In this document: positions 13,088 to 19,445 of the stretch, piece after piece
Numbering within the stretch: the first letter of the stretch is position 1
Layout of the letters: the number at the start of each line of letters is the position of its first letter
Assembly (NCBI GenBank): GCA_965208325.1
Contig: OZ242326.1
Span: 2,784,001-2,848,000 of the forward strand
Length of the DNA: 64,000 nt
Source of the DNA: Candidatus Poribacteria bacterium
Lineage (GTDB): Bacteria > Poribacteria > WGA-4E > PCPOR2b
Direction of reading: 5' to 3'
The notes under the pieces: generated by a model
Databases searched by the model: none
The model's input: the letters and a program-made list of their open reading frames with translations, nothing else
Told to the model about the DNA's origin: nothing
Translations under genes and position numbers: made by a program

Positions 13088-14143
13088 ATGCGGTCTGCAA
13101 CACTCCTGGTTACCTTGAATAACAAAAGATTCACCTGTCCGCTTTGGTCTCATTTTGAGGGTCGCCGGACGCCGAAACTGCCATTTAGCGCATTTAAAAC
13201 CCGCTTTTTCAATCGGAGTGTCCGTTTTTCTATGTTTTTCCTGCTTTTCATTCTCATGGCCATTATCTGTCAACAAGCTCAGGCAGAGCAAGACGATTCG
13301 TATCTCCGATTTGCCGAACACCTCTTCAATCTCGGAAACTATGAATCATCAATCCTTGAACACAAGCGCTTTCTTTTCGACCATACGGATACAGATGTGG
13401 CTGACTTTGTACGTTACCGTATCGCACAGGGTTACTTTTATCAAGAAAATAGCGTAAAGGTCCAGCAGATGTTCGAAGAACTCATGAAGACGAATCCGGA
13501 TTCCCCGCTCAATCCTCATGTTCAACTGATGTTGGGAAAATCCTACCTTGACGCTGGAGAGTATACGAGTGCCCGCTCCAATTTATCCAAGATTATTCAT
13601 GCTGATGCAGATGTTCAGCTATCGGCACAGGCACAATACCTAAAGAGTTGGTGTTATATTCATGAGTGGAATTGGTTGAAGGGGATTGCGGAATTTAGAA
13701 AGGTCAGCAGGTTCCAGCCTGATACATCCCTCAGTACGGTATCCAACCATCTTGCAGACACGACGTTAGCCAAAATTCCTTTGCCGCTCAAGTCGCCCGA
13801 CAGCGCCCTATGGCTGTCCACTCTTTTTCCTGGAATAGGGCAAATCTACGCAGGCCAACACCGTAACGGACTCATCTCCGCCGCAGTCAGTGCCACGTTT
13901 ATATATCTCGCGGCTGACGCATCTCGTGACGAGCGGTATGTAGATGTGGTAGGTATTTCGCTATTAGGTTTGTGGCATTATTGGCGGGATCGGTCCAGTG
14001 CGAAAGGCTTAGCGGTCGAACACAATCGCAAGCTGGCAATGAATCTGATTTACGAGTTAAAGCAAAAATCAGCCGGGTTTAAGCCTTTAAATTTCGAACT
14101 GCCGGAAATTGAAATTATAGCCCCCGCTTCACTGGCGCCATGA
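13088..14143 (+). CDS. TPR protein, paralogue of the upstream gene (true start probably near 13232)
   Basis: FAEHLFNLGNY..EHKRFL matches FADALFQEGDY..EYQRYL; SPDSALWLSTLFPGIGQIY. Confidence 0.75.
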   Translation: MRSATLLVTLNNKRFTCPLWSHFEGRRTPKLPFSAFKTRFFNRSVRFSMFFLLFILMAIICQQAQAEQDDSYLRFAEHLFNLGNYESSILEHKRFLFDHTDTDVADFVRYRIAQGYFYQENSVKVQQMFEELMKTNPDSPLNPHVQLMLGKSYLDAGEYTSARSNLSKIIHADADVQLSAQAQYLKSWCYIHEWNWLKGIAEFRKVSRFQPDTSLSTVSNHLADTTLAKIPLPLKSPDSALWLSTLFPGIGQIYAGQHRNGLISAAVSATFIYLAADASRDERYVDVVGISLLGLWHYWRDRSSAKGLAVEHNRKLAMNLIYELKQKSAGFKPLNFELPEIEIIAPASLAP

Positions 14144-15772
14144 GTGCTGACTGAGGATATCATCCTGGCCCAACTCATCGAAAAGTGACGTGACATTGCT
14201 GCCGTCTGCATCCATAACCCAGATACCGAAACTGCCGTTGCGGTCGCTGCTAAAAGCAATCTTCGTCCCGTCCGGAGACCAACACGGATAGCCATTGTAA
14301 CTGTCCTCGCTGGTCAAGGTGGTTCGATCCCGTGAAAACAAATCTAATACACATATCGCAGCTTGGCTCAGAGATACTTCTTTGGTAAACACCAACTTAG
14401 AACCGTCCGGACTCCAATCCGGGTGGAGTTCGGTGTCTAAGCCCTCCGTTAACCGTTCAACGCCGCCTTCTATTACTGACGCAATGACGACCGGTGCTTG
14501 GGGCGGTTGATACTCCTCTTGCGCTGCACGTATTAATTCATGCAGTTTAGTCTCCGGTTCCGGCACTGGTATCGGGACGGGCGTTGGCTCCGGCTCGGGC
14601 TCCATTTCCGGTTCTGGCTCCGGTTCTGGTTCCGGTTCTACTTCTGGTGGGAGTGCCGCGTCAGCGGCAAGAAACGCTTCAATGTCCACCACAAAGAGAT
14701 TTCTATCATAAGAATACGCAATCTGGGTGCTGTCAGGCGACCAAGTCGGTTTCGAGTCTGCCTCGCAGAAGGAAAGTTTAACGCGATTTTCTCCGTTCAC
14801 ATCCATGATGTAAATCGACGGCTTTCGAAGGGCTTTCGAATGAACGTAAGCAATGCGGTCCCCATCAGGTGACCAAGCCGGATGCCGATCATTGAAAATG
14901 TCGCCGCTGATTGACCTCGTATTGCCGCCGCGGCTATTCATTACATAGATTTGTGGTGGGGCACCGCCTTCTGAGCGACTGAAGATAATTTGCCCGCCAT
15001 TCGGTGACCAGCTAGGTTGGTCGTCGAAAAAGTGAGTAAGCGCCGTCTCGTTTGCACGGTTTGCGTCAATGACTGAAATTCCAAAAAAGTCCTCGCCGGC
15101 AACATTTCCGCGAGCGAAGACAATTTGCCCAGTCATTTTGCGTCGAATAGAAATATTTTGTACGACATTTCTGTCACCGATAGTGATACCCGGCATGTCT
15201 ACTGTGTCATAACCCGGTTTTTCTGCCGTCAAATCGTATTGTCCATCGGAAACTGGGGCAATTATGAATTGTCCCGTAGTGTTCGTAACTGACGCGCGGT
15301 CGCCCAATGTAACCAGGACGTTTCGCACTGGATTGCCGTCGTTAGATATAACCTTGCCCTCAAACTTAACGCCGGGTTCAAGGCGGAAATCGACGGTTGC
15401 CGAATCTTTGCGAGTGACGCTCACTGCCGCTCGTTGTTCCAGATAACCAAGCGCTAAAATGCGCAGGTTATAGTCGCCGCTTTTGAGCGATTCAAACCTA
15501 AAGATGCCATTAGCATCGGTAGTTGTAGTTGCGACCTCCTCAAAGATGGATTTTTCGTCTGTAACGCTCTTTTTCGTAGACAACTTGACTGTCGCATTTG
15601 CAATTCCAGCATGGGTGACCAAATCTGTAACGGAACCTGAGATGACTCCCTCCGGCGATGACACTATCCTCGGACCGACATCTTCGGAATCGTCACCGCC
15701 GCAACCAACGAAAAACACAAACAGAACAAAAATAAACAGACCAAGGTAAGAGTAACGGATTAAGTTCTCCAT
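14129..15772 (-). CDS. Lipoprotein with two carboxypeptidase-regulatory-like beta-sandwiches and a TolB-like PD40 beta-propeller
   Basis: Lipobox FVGC; repeated P.WSPDG..I.(F/Y) units; Pro/Glu insertion. Confidence 0.85.
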   Translation of the reverse strand: MENLIRYSYLGLFIFVLFVFFVGCGGDDSEDVGPRIVSSPEGVISGSVTDLVTHAGIANATVKLSTKKSVTDEKSIFEEVATTTTDANGIFRFESLKSGDYNLRILALGYLEQRAAVSVTRKDSATVDFRLEPGVKFEGKVISNDGNPVRNVLVTLGDRASVTNTTGQFIIAPVSDGQYDLTAEKPGYDTVDMPGITIGDRNVVQNISIRRKMTGQIVFARGNVAGEDFFGISVIDANRANETALTHFFDDQPSWSPNGGQIIFSRSEGGAPPQIYVMNSRGGNTRSISGDIFNDRHPAWSPDGDRIAYVHSKALRKPSIYIMDVNGENRVKLSFCEADSKPTWSPDSTQIAYSYDRNLFVVDIEAFLAADAALPPEVEPEPEPEPEPEMEPEPEPTPVPIPVPEPETKLHELIRAAQEEYQPPQAPVVIASVIEGGVERLTEGLDTELHPDWSPDGSKLVFTKEVSLSQAAICVLDLFSRDRTTLTSEDSYNGYPCWSPDGTKIAFSSDRNGSFGIWVMDADGSNVTSLFDELGQDDILSQHSWRQ

Positions 15773-15921
15773 AATAATTCGTGGGTACGTTTATCCGTCA
15801 GATTCAGACAAACATCCCTCCTCCTCCTTTCCTAATTCACCTGCTGGCAAAAGCCTTCTATACATCAATTCAACCCAGTGAACCAATTCACTAGTCCTTG
15901 TTTAACTGTTTAAACAGAAAT

Positions 15922-17538
15922 CTACAATTTCTGCGCGGCATTTGGTGCATTCTTCCAAAAACCGTCGTCGGCTGAATCATTTAAAACCGTTTCGGGAATG
16001 TAGTTGCTGTAATCCGAAATATTCCCGTGCGTAATCGCATAGACGACAATGTTGATTAGTTGGCGCGCTGCATGCGGCGCAAGTTCCACTAGAATCTGGT
16101 TCTTATTTTTGAACTTGCCGTAGAAGGGCTTCTGAACTGCTCCATCGACTACATGCATCATCTGTTCAGTATCAACCAAAACGGCAAGCCGCCCGTCTAT
16201 AGTGATACCCTGCAGTTCCGAATATGGCCCAAAGTGAAGGGGAATGCTATGGCCCCCCATTGAGGTAATCTTGCGCAAGGGAAAACGTAAGGGGCCATTT
16301 AGCGAATAGTATGTGTTGTAAATCGGGTGATCATTGCGAACAATGCCGAGTTGATGCTCAGGCAGGAGGCTCCGAAGTACTTTCCTTGTACCTCTCATGG
16401 CATTTTCCGCATTTCCATGCGTCGCCATATAGATGAATCCCCCACGATGCAGCACATACTCCCGCAGACTTTGAACTTCAGAGTCTGTATACTTACTTAA
16501 TCCACCCGGACGCCTAGTATTCCAAATTGGATTACTGTGAGAGTTGAATACTCGCTTTAGATGTTCTGGGCTTAAATTGGATCCACCGGGTATCGGCTCC
16601 ATGAATATGATTGGTGCCTGAAAGAACCCGGAATCGTTCATTCCGACCGAATCGACAAACTGTGTTTTTATCTTAGTTTTTTCATTTAGCGATTGCACTA
16701 GATAGGACAGACCTGCCCCAAATCGGAAATTGCCGACACCGTTGCCTCATATGTCTGCACTAGGGTGTAGCGGATCTTCAAAACGCGCCAAGTTTAATCG
16801 CCCCATTATATTTCGACCGCGCCCCACCACGATAGCACCGGGAATACCATGGGGGAGCTCAGGCATGCCGCCTCCCAATGCTACCTTGTCAGCGACATCG
16901 GAAAGCGCGTCGTCAATGTTGGCAGCACCTTCGGCACCAATCAACGAAGTCAATCCGATACGGCCGCTTTCCCTGGTCCCATCCACATTGCTTCCTGAAC
17001 TGACAACCCTATGTCCGCCGCTGAAACCGCCGCCAACGCCTTCCGAGAGCGAACCGCCTCCGCTCACCCCCGACGTTAACGGGGCATTCGAGTGAAGCGG
17101 AAGATCGACAGCAGTAGCAAGAGGTTGGGCCGGTTGGCGATTGGCACGAGAAGACTGAACGAGTCCTTGGACAGATATTTCGGCGCGCGCGGCTTGCGTA
17201 GTAGATTGAGAAACTAGGGAATTCACCGCTGTAGCCTTCGCCGCAAATACGGAGGCAGATCGTCCAGGATGAGTCGTCAGAGCCCGCGACTGCGCCGACG
17301 CTATCTGTCGTTCGATTTGAATGTCAGGCATAGGTATTATCGGCACGGAGATAGGTGCCTTGACATACGGTAATTTCTCTACGGGCTTTATCGGTTTAAC
17401 TTTCAGAATGCTCACATTTAAGGCATCAACTTCTCTAGAATTAATTTGTTTGATGGCGATTAAACTAAACACAATCGCGAGACATAGATGTACCGCTAGA
17501 GACATTAACCAGAAGCGGTACTTGTAACGAGATTTCAT
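15922..17538 (-). CDS. TonB-like-anchored DUF4159-domain protein with in-frame UGA at 16747-16749 (candidate selenoprotein; alternatively a split gene)
   Basis: ORFs 16747..17538 and 15922..16698 are in frame and joined by 16 open codons; C-half has LREYVLHRGGFI, DHPIY, GITIDGRLAV, NIVVYAITH typical of DUF4159. Confidence 0.65.
16703..16746 (-). promoter_or_regulatory. Putative bacterial SECIS element
   Basis: UGGGGCAGGUCUGUCCUA stem-loop at +27..+44 after the UGA; core resembles E. coli fdhF SECIS GCAGGUCUGC. Confidence 0.55.
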
Positions 17539-17662
17539 TGGGGTAACCTCCTTTTGCGAATAGTTCGGCTAGTCTTGCCGTACCGGGAAGAGAAAACGGC
17601 ACTGCAATCAGCATAAAACCGATTCTCCAATTAGTGTTTACGCTGTGTTTACTTCTATTTAT

Positions 17663-17679
17663 AGCAAGTATGATGCCAG
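17663..17679 (-). promoter_or_regulatory. sigma54 (-24/-12) promoter
   Basis: CTGGCATCATACTTGCT: GG-N10-GC, 125 bp upstream of the ATG at 17538. Confidence 0.7.
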
Positions 17680-17928
17680 TTCGGAATGCTTTAAAATGAA
17701 GTCGGATAGGGATTGTTGCCCGATAAACTGTTCAATACATGGACGGGATTGTCCGAAAATCGTGCAATGAGAGTTCGGCGGCATAAATGGAAAATGCACC
17801 AACTTGTCACTTCGTCGTGTGAGACGTTGTCCGTGCGAGAAATTGGGTATGTCTATTTCTGAAAAAGGCACGCTTTCCCGTTCGCCATTGTGACACCAAC
17901 TTCAGCCCAAAAAATAAATCGTCATGAC

Positions 17929-17948
17929 TGTATCATTTTTGCCACACT
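17929..17948. promoter_or_regulatory. Putative activator binding site (TGT-N12-ACA)
   Basis: Reverse complement AGTGTGGCAAAAATGATACA is 18/20 identical to 55932-55951. Confidence 0.55.
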
Positions 17949-18117
17949 ATCCCTTTCAATGCCAAGAAACCTTCACCGTAGCTCGGTCTTGCACCAAACG
18001 GTGCATTTTGAACCAAACCTTGCCCTGTTTTGTGCACTCATTGGACGAGATTAATCTCTCAATGCATTGCTGAGTTTTTTTGAGTTCACCAATATTTGCA
18101 AAAATGTCGATAGGTTT

Positions 18118-18217
18118 GAAACCGTATTTTTTTCTTGAAAACTCGATTTATTAAACCGTGCAGTAAATGGAAGCCATTCCGCCATGCCCGTCCGCTTAGA
18201 TTTCCAAGCCCGAATTG
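18118..18217. repeat. Family A intergenic repeat (long form)
   Basis: GAAACCG.ATTTTTTTCTTGAAAACTCG.TTT plus tail TTCCAAGCCC.AATT shared with 1301. Confidence 0.7.
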
Positions 18218-18404
18218 ATACTAGCACAATTTTCAAACCATCTCCGTGGCCAATACAAAATTTGCTAATACGTAGCACACTCGTACGTAGTAGCATTTAT
18301 CTACTGTAGAAAAGCCAATCGAAATATGGTATTATGAAAGGGTAAAGTATCTAGTCCTTCAAGAAATCGGTTCATGGGCTCTCCACTCAAAGGTATATTG
18401 CCGC

Positions 18405-19445
18405 ATGCCAGAAATTGACCCGCTTGACAAATTCTTAAAGGAAACAAAAGAGAGAATTGATACGCACATCTTGAATTTTCTGCCTCAAGAACACGAACGC
18501 CATGAAGTGCGTCGGCTCTATGAAATGATGAGGGATTATCCGCTGCGTTCGGGCAAACGATTACGCCCCGCAATCTGTTTGCTAATCTGCGAAGCTTTCG
18601 GCGGAAATCTAAGAGAGGCTCTCAATACTGCTGCGGCACTAGAACTTTTGCAAGATTGGCTTTTAATCCATGACGATATTGAAGATCAGTCGGATTTGCG
18701 TCGCGGCCAACCGTGTTTACATCTAAAGTATGGTATTCCGATGGCTATTAACGTCGGCGATGCTCTCCACTGCAAAATGTGGGAAATGCTCCATTCGAAC
18801 GCAGATTCACTTGGCTATGAGATTGCGTTTCAGATTCTATCCGAGTTCTCACAACTCTGCAACCAGGTCGTCGAAGGGCAACATATCGAGTTAAGTTGGG
18901 TTAGCAACAACCGTTGGAACCTAACTGAAGCAGATTACTGGACTATGTGTGTGCAGAAAACAGCTTGGTATACATGTATCACCCCATGTCGAATCGGCGC
19001 TCTTATCGCTGGAGCAACTACAGCCGATGCCGATCAATTTAACGATATCGGCATGAATCTCGGAGTCGCCTTCCAAATACAAGACGACGTACTCAATCTA
19101 GTCGGTGAAGTGGGGCGGTACGGTAAAGAGATTGCTGGCGACATCAGTGAGGGCAAACGCACGCTTGTACTCATTCACTTGTTGAGCTCATGTACAAAGA
19201 CCGAGGCGCTGCGCGTAATCGAGATTATGGATAAATCTCGAGAGGATAAGACCCAAGAAGAAATTGAAGACGTGTTGCGCTTGATTGGGAAATACAAGTC
19301 CATTCAATACGCACAGCAGCAGTCCAAAAGACTCGCGCAAAACGCATTTACACAGTTCACTCGCGAATTTGCCCGCCTACCGGATAGTCGGGCAAAAAAT
19401 CTCTTTTCGCGCCTAATTCATTTCGTCATCGAACGTGAGTATTAA
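18405..19445 (+). CDS. trans-Isoprenyl diphosphate synthase (GGPP synthase-like)
   Basis: GKRLRP, FARM HDDIED..RRG, GQ..E, KT, SARM FQIQDDVLN, EGKRT. Confidence 0.92.
   Translation: MPEIDPLDKFLKETKERIDTHILNFLPQEHERHEVRRLYEMMRDYPLRSGKRLRPAICLLICEAFGGNLREALNTAAALELLQDWLLIHDDIEDQSDLRRGQPCLHLKYGIPMAINVGDALHCKMWEMLHSNADSLGYEIAFQILSEFSQLCNQVVEGQHIELSWVSNNRWNLTEADYWTMCVQKTAWYTCITPCRIGALIAGATTADADQFNDIGMNLGVAFQIQDDVLNLVGEVGRYGKEIAGDISEGKRTLVLIHLLSSCTKTEALRVIEIMDKSREDKTQEEIEDVLRLIGKYKSIQYAQQQSKRLAQNAFTQFTREFARLPDSRAKNLFSRLIHFVIEREY

Follow-up and report, generated by a model that had tools for sequence, protein, structure and literature searches.

The two open reading frames called at positions 15922 to 17538 of the window are almost certainly one gene making one membrane-anchored selenoprotein, as comparison of related sequences indicates. 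The window is the whole 64,000-nt stretch of contig OZ242326.1, from a Candidatus Poribacteria bacterium, that was analysed (2,784,001 to 2,848,000); coordinates are positions in this stretch, and those preceded by G000 refer to the host genome. The best explanation overall, to which a probability of about 0.9 is assigned, is a single gene in which UGA codon 264 would be decoded as selenocysteine (Sec264) by the standard bacterial SelB/tRNA-Sec route, the product being an anchored periplasmic DUF4159 protein with a putative metal or redox site. With still greater confidence, and on the same comparative basis, the gene is held to be genuine and conserved, and to encode a selenoprotein of a family not yet catalogued.

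Reading frame and conservation of the UGA codon

The gene is located on the minus strand, with its ATG at 17538, a TAG at 15924-15922 and a lone in-frame TGA at 16749-16747, which is codon 264. The original prediction had described two same-frame ORFs split by a TGA plus 16 open codons, 538 aa in total, and this was borne out on the minus strand. The plus-strand reading of the same coordinates was rejected because it is full of stops. An ORF of 263 codons precedes the TGA, a GTG at 16698 is reached after 16 further open codons, and the read-through product of 538 aa reads ...HPSADI-U-GNGVGNFRFGAGLSYLVQSLNE... The following elements were assigned:

15922..17538, minus strand: single CDS of 538 aa with U264, encoding a predicted transmembrane (TM) anchor, low-complexity linker and DUF4159 domain
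17546..17553, minus strand: strong Shine-Dalgarno sequence AAGGAGGT ahead of the ATG
16747..16749, minus strand: in-frame UGA, putative Sec264 (79 TGA, 13 TGT and 2 TGC in 94 copies)
16696..16698, minus strand: GTG, taken by ORF callers as the start of a false second gene

The GTG had been said to lack a Shine-Dalgarno sequence; this holds for a strong one, but a weak AGGT is present upstream of it, inside a hairpin. The GTG is kept in 14 of 78 full-length TGA copies, and the 16 codons between the TGA and the GTG position are open and conserved in all 78. A scan for promoters and terminators gave nothing beyond shuffled sequences. In the protein databases many C-terminal fragments of 234-259 aa start 3′ of the Sec site, and full-length Cys homologues of 529-541 aa are also found there.

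A sequencing error had been named as a point to be checked. The TGA is present in contigs from three independent studies that span the site (taken from 4 of the 24 listed sequencing runs), and all their listed differences fall elsewhere. The runs carrying the locus are labelled sponge metagenomes, and no RNA run is among those listed. TGA is the stop of 657 of 1916 long ORFs in the host genome, in line with the earlier statement that UGA is not globally recoded.

A search of 176 genomes of the phylum yielded approximately 100 strong matches, mostly with exactly one internal TGA, part of which were fetched. Among 94 distinct subfamily copies the Sec site is occupied by TGA (79), TGT (13) or TGC (2) and by no other codon. 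The comparison proposed with the original prediction, namely whether UGA is conserved or aligned with Cys, therefore came out in its favour. Trp at this position in homologues had been named as evidence against it: TGG occurs in none of the 94 subfamily copies, but it does occur in 27 of the 28 distant paralogues compared along with them (the remaining one aligns poorly), and these belong to another subfamily without the hairpins. Further Cys forms were found in the protein databases (P0052, P0132). Seven of eight metagenome loci examined cover the site, all with TGA; L166 and L167 are identical around it and L171 is frameshifted. The deep metagenome copies L169 and L170 (about 42% identity) and the fragment L172 retain TGA as well.

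The history of the codon was reconstructed on quick trees. In a 36-row tree built without the site columns, the Cys copies (TGT, TGC) are nested among TGA copies and two changes are required; monophyly of the Cys copies was rejected (p-AU 2e-33), and four Sec/Cys changes are obtained once deeper proteins join the tree. On this phylogenetic evidence, Cys is derived from the putative Sec at least twice. ECF-sigma-TM-DUF4159 fusions of the subfamily comprise L035/L114 of genome G028 and the TGT clade: one fusion keeps TGA (L114), and its 13 sister copies have TGT and a decaying SECIS.

A few copies are broken: L171 shows a 5-nt loss within the SECIS and a frameshift, L070 is a partial duplicate that stops 49 codons past the UGA, and L162 is N-terminally interrupted. 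The truncated TGA copy L070 was excluded from the SECIS, silent-site, invariance and tree counts, in which 93 of the 94 copies were used.

Recoding signal and selenocysteine machinery

Both hairpins of the original prediction fold as described:

16722..16737, minus strand: hairpin 1 (+10..+25 from the UGA), with a variable G-less loop and a stem kept at silent sites
16703..16720, minus strand: putative bSECIS hairpin UGGGGCA-GGUC-UGUCCUA (+27..+44), with its GGUC loop 33 nt past the UGA

All 78 full-length TGA copies preserve the 16-nt fdhF-like core of the second hairpin (+28..+43), vs 4 of 15 Cys copies, the latter being not independent because they are grouped in two clades. Not one synonymous substitution was counted along the tree at the codons of R272, G274, A275, G276 and L277, and 77 comparable columns elsewhere have a minimum of 8 and a median of 15. 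At codon 278 a Ser/Pro swap preserves the stem (G-U/G-C). The exact pattern of TGA, 21 free bases and conserved stretch was found at 86 places in 75 of the 176 genomes, 7 of these copies being not yet fetched when the pattern was drawn up, and the reversed control gave none. As judged from these comparisons, the SECIS is linked to the UGA: it is frozen at silent sites in TGA copies and decays in Cys copies. For a major phylum of sponge symbionts, annotation of the gene as one CDS sets right an error that recurs systematically (86 copies, 75 genomes).

The folding energy of the segment from the UGA to +67 is not above chance relative to shuffles (z 0.38). For the isolated SECIS hairpin region −7.7 kcal/mol was calculated, with 15 of 200 shuffles equally good; against the bSECIS threshold of ≤ −7.5 kcal/mol, the values of −7.7 (16700-16725) and −6.9 (bare 7-bp hairpin) are borderline. 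Because folding energy alone is no better than shuffles, the evidence for the hairpins is their conservation. Covariation analysis of 69 distinct sequences among the 78 TGA copies gave no two-sided pair change in either hairpin; support for the structure therefore comes from conservation and from changes on one side of a pair. Just CA-GGUU-UG is retained, at 36 nt, in two deep copies (L170, L172), where no stable stem folds. RNAalifold also suggested a further closing helix (columns 18-21 with 69-72), which was rejected, as one pair is broken in 17 of 69 sequences and the helix would sit in the mRNA channel of the ribosome. An Rfam scan of 15500-18500 returned three weak matches at chance level, with no SECIS family among them.

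Like the E. coli fdhF element, the proposed SECIS is an intragenic hairpin 3′ of the UGA with a small G-first loop. Its core GCAGGUCUG equals the E. coli fdhF core, and the host fdhA has a very similar hairpin (GGUUGCC-GGUCU-GGCAGCC). Unlike fdhF and the consensus bSECIS, it has no bulged U, and a separate conserved hairpin stands in the usual SECIS place. The upper stem of E. coli fdhF is given as 11 nt from the UGA in the accessible text of PMC8659212. The spacing found here, 33 nt and in deep copies 36 nt, departs widely from the geometry in E. coli. The hairpin had been described as lying about 15 nt farther from the UGA than in fdhF; it does, yet within the loop-to-UGA range of 16-37 nt given for the consensus bSECIS in the accessible part of PMC13188914, with whose loop, stem, G and spacing rules the element (GGUC loop, 6-7 bp, 33 nt) agrees.

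The sel genes, for which a search of the genome had been proposed, are all present: selA, selB and tRNA-Sec form one cluster at 2.041-2.045 Mb of the host genome, and selD carries one in-frame TGA of its own. Among 61 relatives selA is present in 60, the miss being G009, which has selB; selB was found in five of five genomes tested, G009 included. The tRNA-Sec is the sole UCA-anticodon tRNA of the host genome. ARAGORN also listed a second tRNA-Phe(GAA) at G000:C1:2003258-2003345 on the minus strand, which at 88 nt is long for a tRNA-Phe. The other candidate UGA sites of the host genome, several of them with provisional labels, were located by position:

G000:C1 4482174, minus strand: candidate in-frame UGA, selD
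G000:C1 1503673, minus strand: candidate in-frame UGA, fdhA
G000:C1 4409564, plus strand: candidate in-frame UGA, AhpC-like
G000:C1 3934806, plus strand: candidate in-frame UGA, DUF3179-like
G000:C1 1069305, minus strand: candidate in-frame UGA, geranylgeranyl-reductase-like
G000:C1 2377540, plus strand: candidate in-frame UGA, SelW-like
G000:C1 389570, plus strand: candidate in-frame UGA, CRTAC1-like
G000:C1 3272764, plus strand: candidate in-frame UGA, SELENON-like
G000:C1 1163868, plus strand: candidate in-frame UGA, DUF5069-like
G000:C1 776709/776718, plus strand: candidate in-frame UGAs, UxxU barrel
G000:C1 397811/397805, minus strand: candidate in-frame UGAs, UxU rhodanese

Measured by these candidate sites, the host selenoproteome is rich. 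A clear hairpin was identified at 9 of 14 candidate UGA sites, with UGA-to-loop spacings of 17 (selD), 18 (fdhA), 20, 21, 21, 22, 22, 31 and 33 nt (DUF4159 gene), the 31-nt spacing being that of the first U of the UxxU candidate. The hairpin scan gave no clear SECIS at the other five (DUF5069, the two rhodanese sites, SELENON-like and DUF3179), and the comparison of spacings therefore rests on nine sites. Among these, the 33 nt of the DUF4159 gene is the longest, as against 17-22 nt at the seven other single or proximal Sec sites.

Hairpin 1 occupies the place where the SECIS normally stands. The third positions of its codons 268, 271 and 272 show 1, 1 and 0 changes, and 281 outside columns have a minimum of 2 and a median of 13; it is retained in Cys copies too. 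The recoding signal is distant and, as far as conservation can indicate, probably bipartite, made up of two hairpins. SelB would bind the GGUC loop of the +27..+44 hairpin, for which the evidence is comparative, and hairpin 1, by folding out, could take up about 16 nt and thereby present the SECIS, which lies 33 nt off in sequence, to SelB at the usual 17-nt distance. Against such a fold-out it must be noted that two deep TGA copies have a disrupted hairpin 1 and that another candidate Sec codon of the host genome sits 31 nt from its hairpin. The distant two-hairpin SECIS offers a natural test of the strictness of SelB towards the UGA-to-loop distance, a dependence which restricts the choice of sites for engineered Sec.

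Other readings of the UGA were weighed against Sec insertion. Two separate genes (an anchor and a soluble DUF4159 fragment), a conserved pseudogene or an assembly error would fit the annotation made by ORF callers and the few broken copies (L171, L070, L162), but are scarcely credible: the downstream GTG is rare and the 16 intervening codons are always open, the stop is TGA in every case, TAA and TAG being absent, Cys orthologues of full length are found, and the site reads alike in independent contigs. The idea that a suppressor or a changed genetic code makes the UGA stand for Trp or Cys, to which the Trp (TGG) of distant paralogues at the Sec column lends something, is just as hard to credit, given that the sole UCA-anticodon tRNA is tRNA-Sec, that TGA commonly ends long ORFs, that no subfamily copy has TGG and that the SECIS decays once the codon becomes Cys. 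It is improbable, too, that the UGA serves mainly as a Se-dependent switch, at which partial termination would leave a 263-aa TonB-like anchor and full-length protein would be formed only with Se. UGA recoding in E. coli is just 30-40% efficient according to the accessible text of PMC4513850, the UGA is placed neatly after the linker, and the distant SECIS and the extra hairpin could tune efficiency; however, all 15 TGA replacements are Cys (as are P0052 and P0132), which argues for a chemical need, and the UGA falls inside the folded DUF4159 domain, past its first strands in the model, so that a truncated form would end mid-domain. Sec insertion, the interpretation put forward originally, is the reading supported by the comparative evidence.

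Membrane anchor, DUF4159 domain and candidate site

The predicted product comprises the following parts:

17449..17514, minus strand: N-terminal TM anchor (approximately aa 9-30), predicted from hydropathy, after a basic N-terminus and with a TonB/TolA-like S-x3-H motif (S13, H17)
16030..16800, minus strand: DUF4159 domain (approximately aa 247-503), class I GATase-like alpha/beta fold
16597..16599, minus strand: Glu314, subfamily-invariant, candidate ligand
16417..16419, minus strand: His374, at the column of the Cys in the paralogues' FDDCG
16153..16167, minus strand: Glu458 to His462, with His462 at the column of the Cys in the paralogues' DYMC

The product would be held in the inner membrane by one N-in/C-out helix, and a long linker would lead to a periplasmic DUF4159 domain. 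About 200 low-complexity residues lie between the TM helix and DUF4159. The S-x3-H motif is present in 89 of 94 copies and the family profile matches TonB 9ddo_F weakly (E 0.003); the TonB-like anchor of the original prediction stands in this respect, but no TonB_C domain accompanies it. The protein is thus like TonB and TolA in its TM motif, its long Pro/Gly/Ser-rich linker, its C-terminal, presumably periplasmic domain and a TolB-like propeller lipoprotein encoded after the Sec gene, and unlike them in that the TonB_C/TolA C-terminal domain is absent and DUF4159 is the sole domain detected. In place of the later Leu and Ser of the TonB SHLS face, the Sec protein has F24 and A28. The architecture also resembles ECF sigma factors with a C-terminal TM helix and an extracytoplasmic domain: in close paralogues, which are about 740 aa long, an ECF sigma factor at the N-terminus is followed by a TM helix and then by DUF4159. 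This order argues that the DUF4159 domain is extracytoplasmic. In G000 itself, tblastn and Pfam searches found no ECF-DUF4159 fusion.

The domain matches PF13709 with E 2e-16 and 60.6 bits vs a cut-off of 25.9. An AF2 model of aa 222-538 (pLDDT 86, pTM 0.88; Sec loop pLDDT 65-68) resembles the DUF4159 member Hoch_4089 (PDB 4I66), with which the Pfam match and the fold are shared (Z 17.9, rmsd 3.1, 190 aligned; profile E 2.9e-31); the next structural matches are ThuA-like and GATase-I proteins with Z of about 8. The accessible text of PMC4702930 reports that Pfam placed DUF4159 in the GATase-I/ThuA/DJ-1 clan on structure. Unlike Hoch_4089, the protein has a TM anchor and linker and a longer loop after strand 1, with Sec/Cys where others have Trp. 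Sec had been proposed at the start of DUF4159; it does fall within the domain, but more exactly in the loop after the first core strand, outside any recognised redox motif.

U264 is the sole Cys/Sec outside the membrane helix, the only other Cys being residue 19 in the TM segment, and no UxxC, CxxU or UxxS motif or resolving Cys is present in the 538-aa protein. No variation occurs at E314, H374, E458 and H462 among the 93 copies compared. The paralogues read H-x3-D-W-W and the subfamily H-x3-D-I-U, and from paralogues to subfamily W is exchanged for U, the C of FDDCG for H374 and the C of DYMC for H462, His thereby replacing two Cys. In the model, E314, H374, E458 and H462 each come after the C-terminal end of a core strand, which is where the functional edge of the GATase-like fold usually lies. 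From fold topology and column swaps, a paralogue face with Trp and two Cys appears to have given way to a ligand set rebuilt around Sec. As no other Cys is available outside the membrane, U264 with His374, His462, Glu314 and Glu458 may form a soft-metal or redox-sensing site, a possibility that is put forward tentatively and held at rather less than even odds. Close paralogues have a cytoplasmic ECF sigma factor in the same polypeptide, and for that reason the protein is probably a sensor of the envelope or a subunit that handles a ligand. The candidate residues flag a reactive position of DUF4159 together with its likely partners; the domain is widespread and is characterised in structure but not in function.

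A different role after Sec insertion would be that of a periplasmic enzyme, a GATase-I/ThuA/DJ-1-type hydrolase or transferase in which Sec would act as nucleophile and His/Glu as general base. This is unlikely, although to be taken seriously: the class I GATase-like fold and the Pfam clan placement (PMC4702930, accessible text) speak for it, as do the invariant His and Glu residues and the fact that a GATase-related selenoprotein, NF004836, is already catalogued. It is opposed by the position of Sec, since the column in which the paralogues have the FDDCG Cys is occupied by His374, by the ECF sigma fusions of the paralogues, which point to sensing, and by the lack of a match of the protein to NF004836. 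The FDDCG turn is here taken as the putative counterpart of the strand-helix elbow at which class I glutamine amidotransferases (GATases) carry their nucleophile, together with a His-Glu dyad.

Origin, known families and neighbouring genes

For the origin of Sec, an ancestral Trp codon TGG may have become TGA by one transition while both ancestral Cys became His, and an envelope-signalling module would thereby have acquired a periplasmic metal site made up of Sec-His-His-Glu. If true, a selenoprotein would have been born without a Cys precursor at the Sec position; the accessible text of PMC1794560 presumes Cys ancestors for most selenoproteins and describes Sec-to-Cys changes as rarer. On the deepest sampled branch, Cys forms (P0132, P0271) stand beside P0154, which is annotated as cut past the site, and a path from Trp to Cys to Sec is for this reason equally possible. 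The joint proposal, that Sec was born at an ancestral Trp codon with both Cys changed to His and that the SECIS is bipartite through fold-out of hairpin 1, is accordingly regarded as doubtful.

DUF4159/PF13709 is absent from the 119 families in Table 1 of a 2026 review (PMC13188914, accessible text), in agreement with the original view that it is not a known selenoprotein family. The available passages of deep-Sep (PMC12013277) name no DUF4159, nor do those of BSepDB (PMC13326102), whose Table S2 may contain an entry. In the accessible literature on DUF4159, PF13709 and 4I66, the Pfam paper PMC4702930 alone was relevant. Table 1 of PMC13188914 contains NF004836, a deep-Sep family described as a CTP-synthase-C-terminal-related GATase selenoprotein. 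NF004836 and the DUF4159 protein are both predicted single-Sec proteins of the class I GATase superfamily; the motif of NF004836 is GxUxG, and the DUF4159 subfamily has D-[IF]-U-G, placed in the loop that follows strand 1. No NCBIfam model (June 2026), NF004836 included, matched the protein at E ≤ 1. The gene would add an uncatalogued, extracytoplasmic, non-thioredoxin family to the approximately 120 known prokaryotic selenoprotein families.

The downstream neighbour is linked to the Sec gene in part of the family:

14129..15772, minus strand: lipoprotein with CarboxypepD_reg-like domains and a TolB-like PD40 propeller

It has two CarboxypepD_reg-like domains, and a Pro-Glu repeat breaks up its PD40 propeller. 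The propeller lipoprotein follows the Sec gene in family f1 (genera g1 and g5) and at two deep loci; both genes were duplicated together in genus g5, and four g1/g5 genomes without the Sec gene (G001, G011, G016, G022) are also without the lipoprotein. In family f2, none of 112 genomes, 54 of them with the Sec gene, gave a lipoprotein match in a weak search with one query and 13 candidates scored per genome; as it was not found there, the lipoprotein is not an obligatory partner. A complex predicted for the domain of a natural Cys homologue and the neighbouring lipoprotein scored 0.00, which weighs neither way. In f2 the Sec gene usually lies between a DUF5916 gene and rhodanese, PTPS and folE genes, and at 11 of 12 mapped loci (L126-L144) a two-domain rhodanese, PTPS and folE come after it. 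This neighbourhood is possibly a landing site only, or possibly a link to sulfur or selenium metabolism.

Elsewhere in the host genome, a DUF4159 paralogue of 563 aa is located near G000:C1 4638000 (L007:1462-3150, minus strand), whose N-terminus is weakly like the N-terminal domain of DNA polymerase III beta (E 0.00036, below the cut-off). Moreover, a dispersed intergenic element of about 150 bp was observed at positions 18115-18262 of the window. Copies that are 75-80% alike occur at G000:C1:2045210-2045357, just upstream of selA, at positions 1312-1408 of the window and in two other places. The element is probably a small mobile or regulatory repeat.
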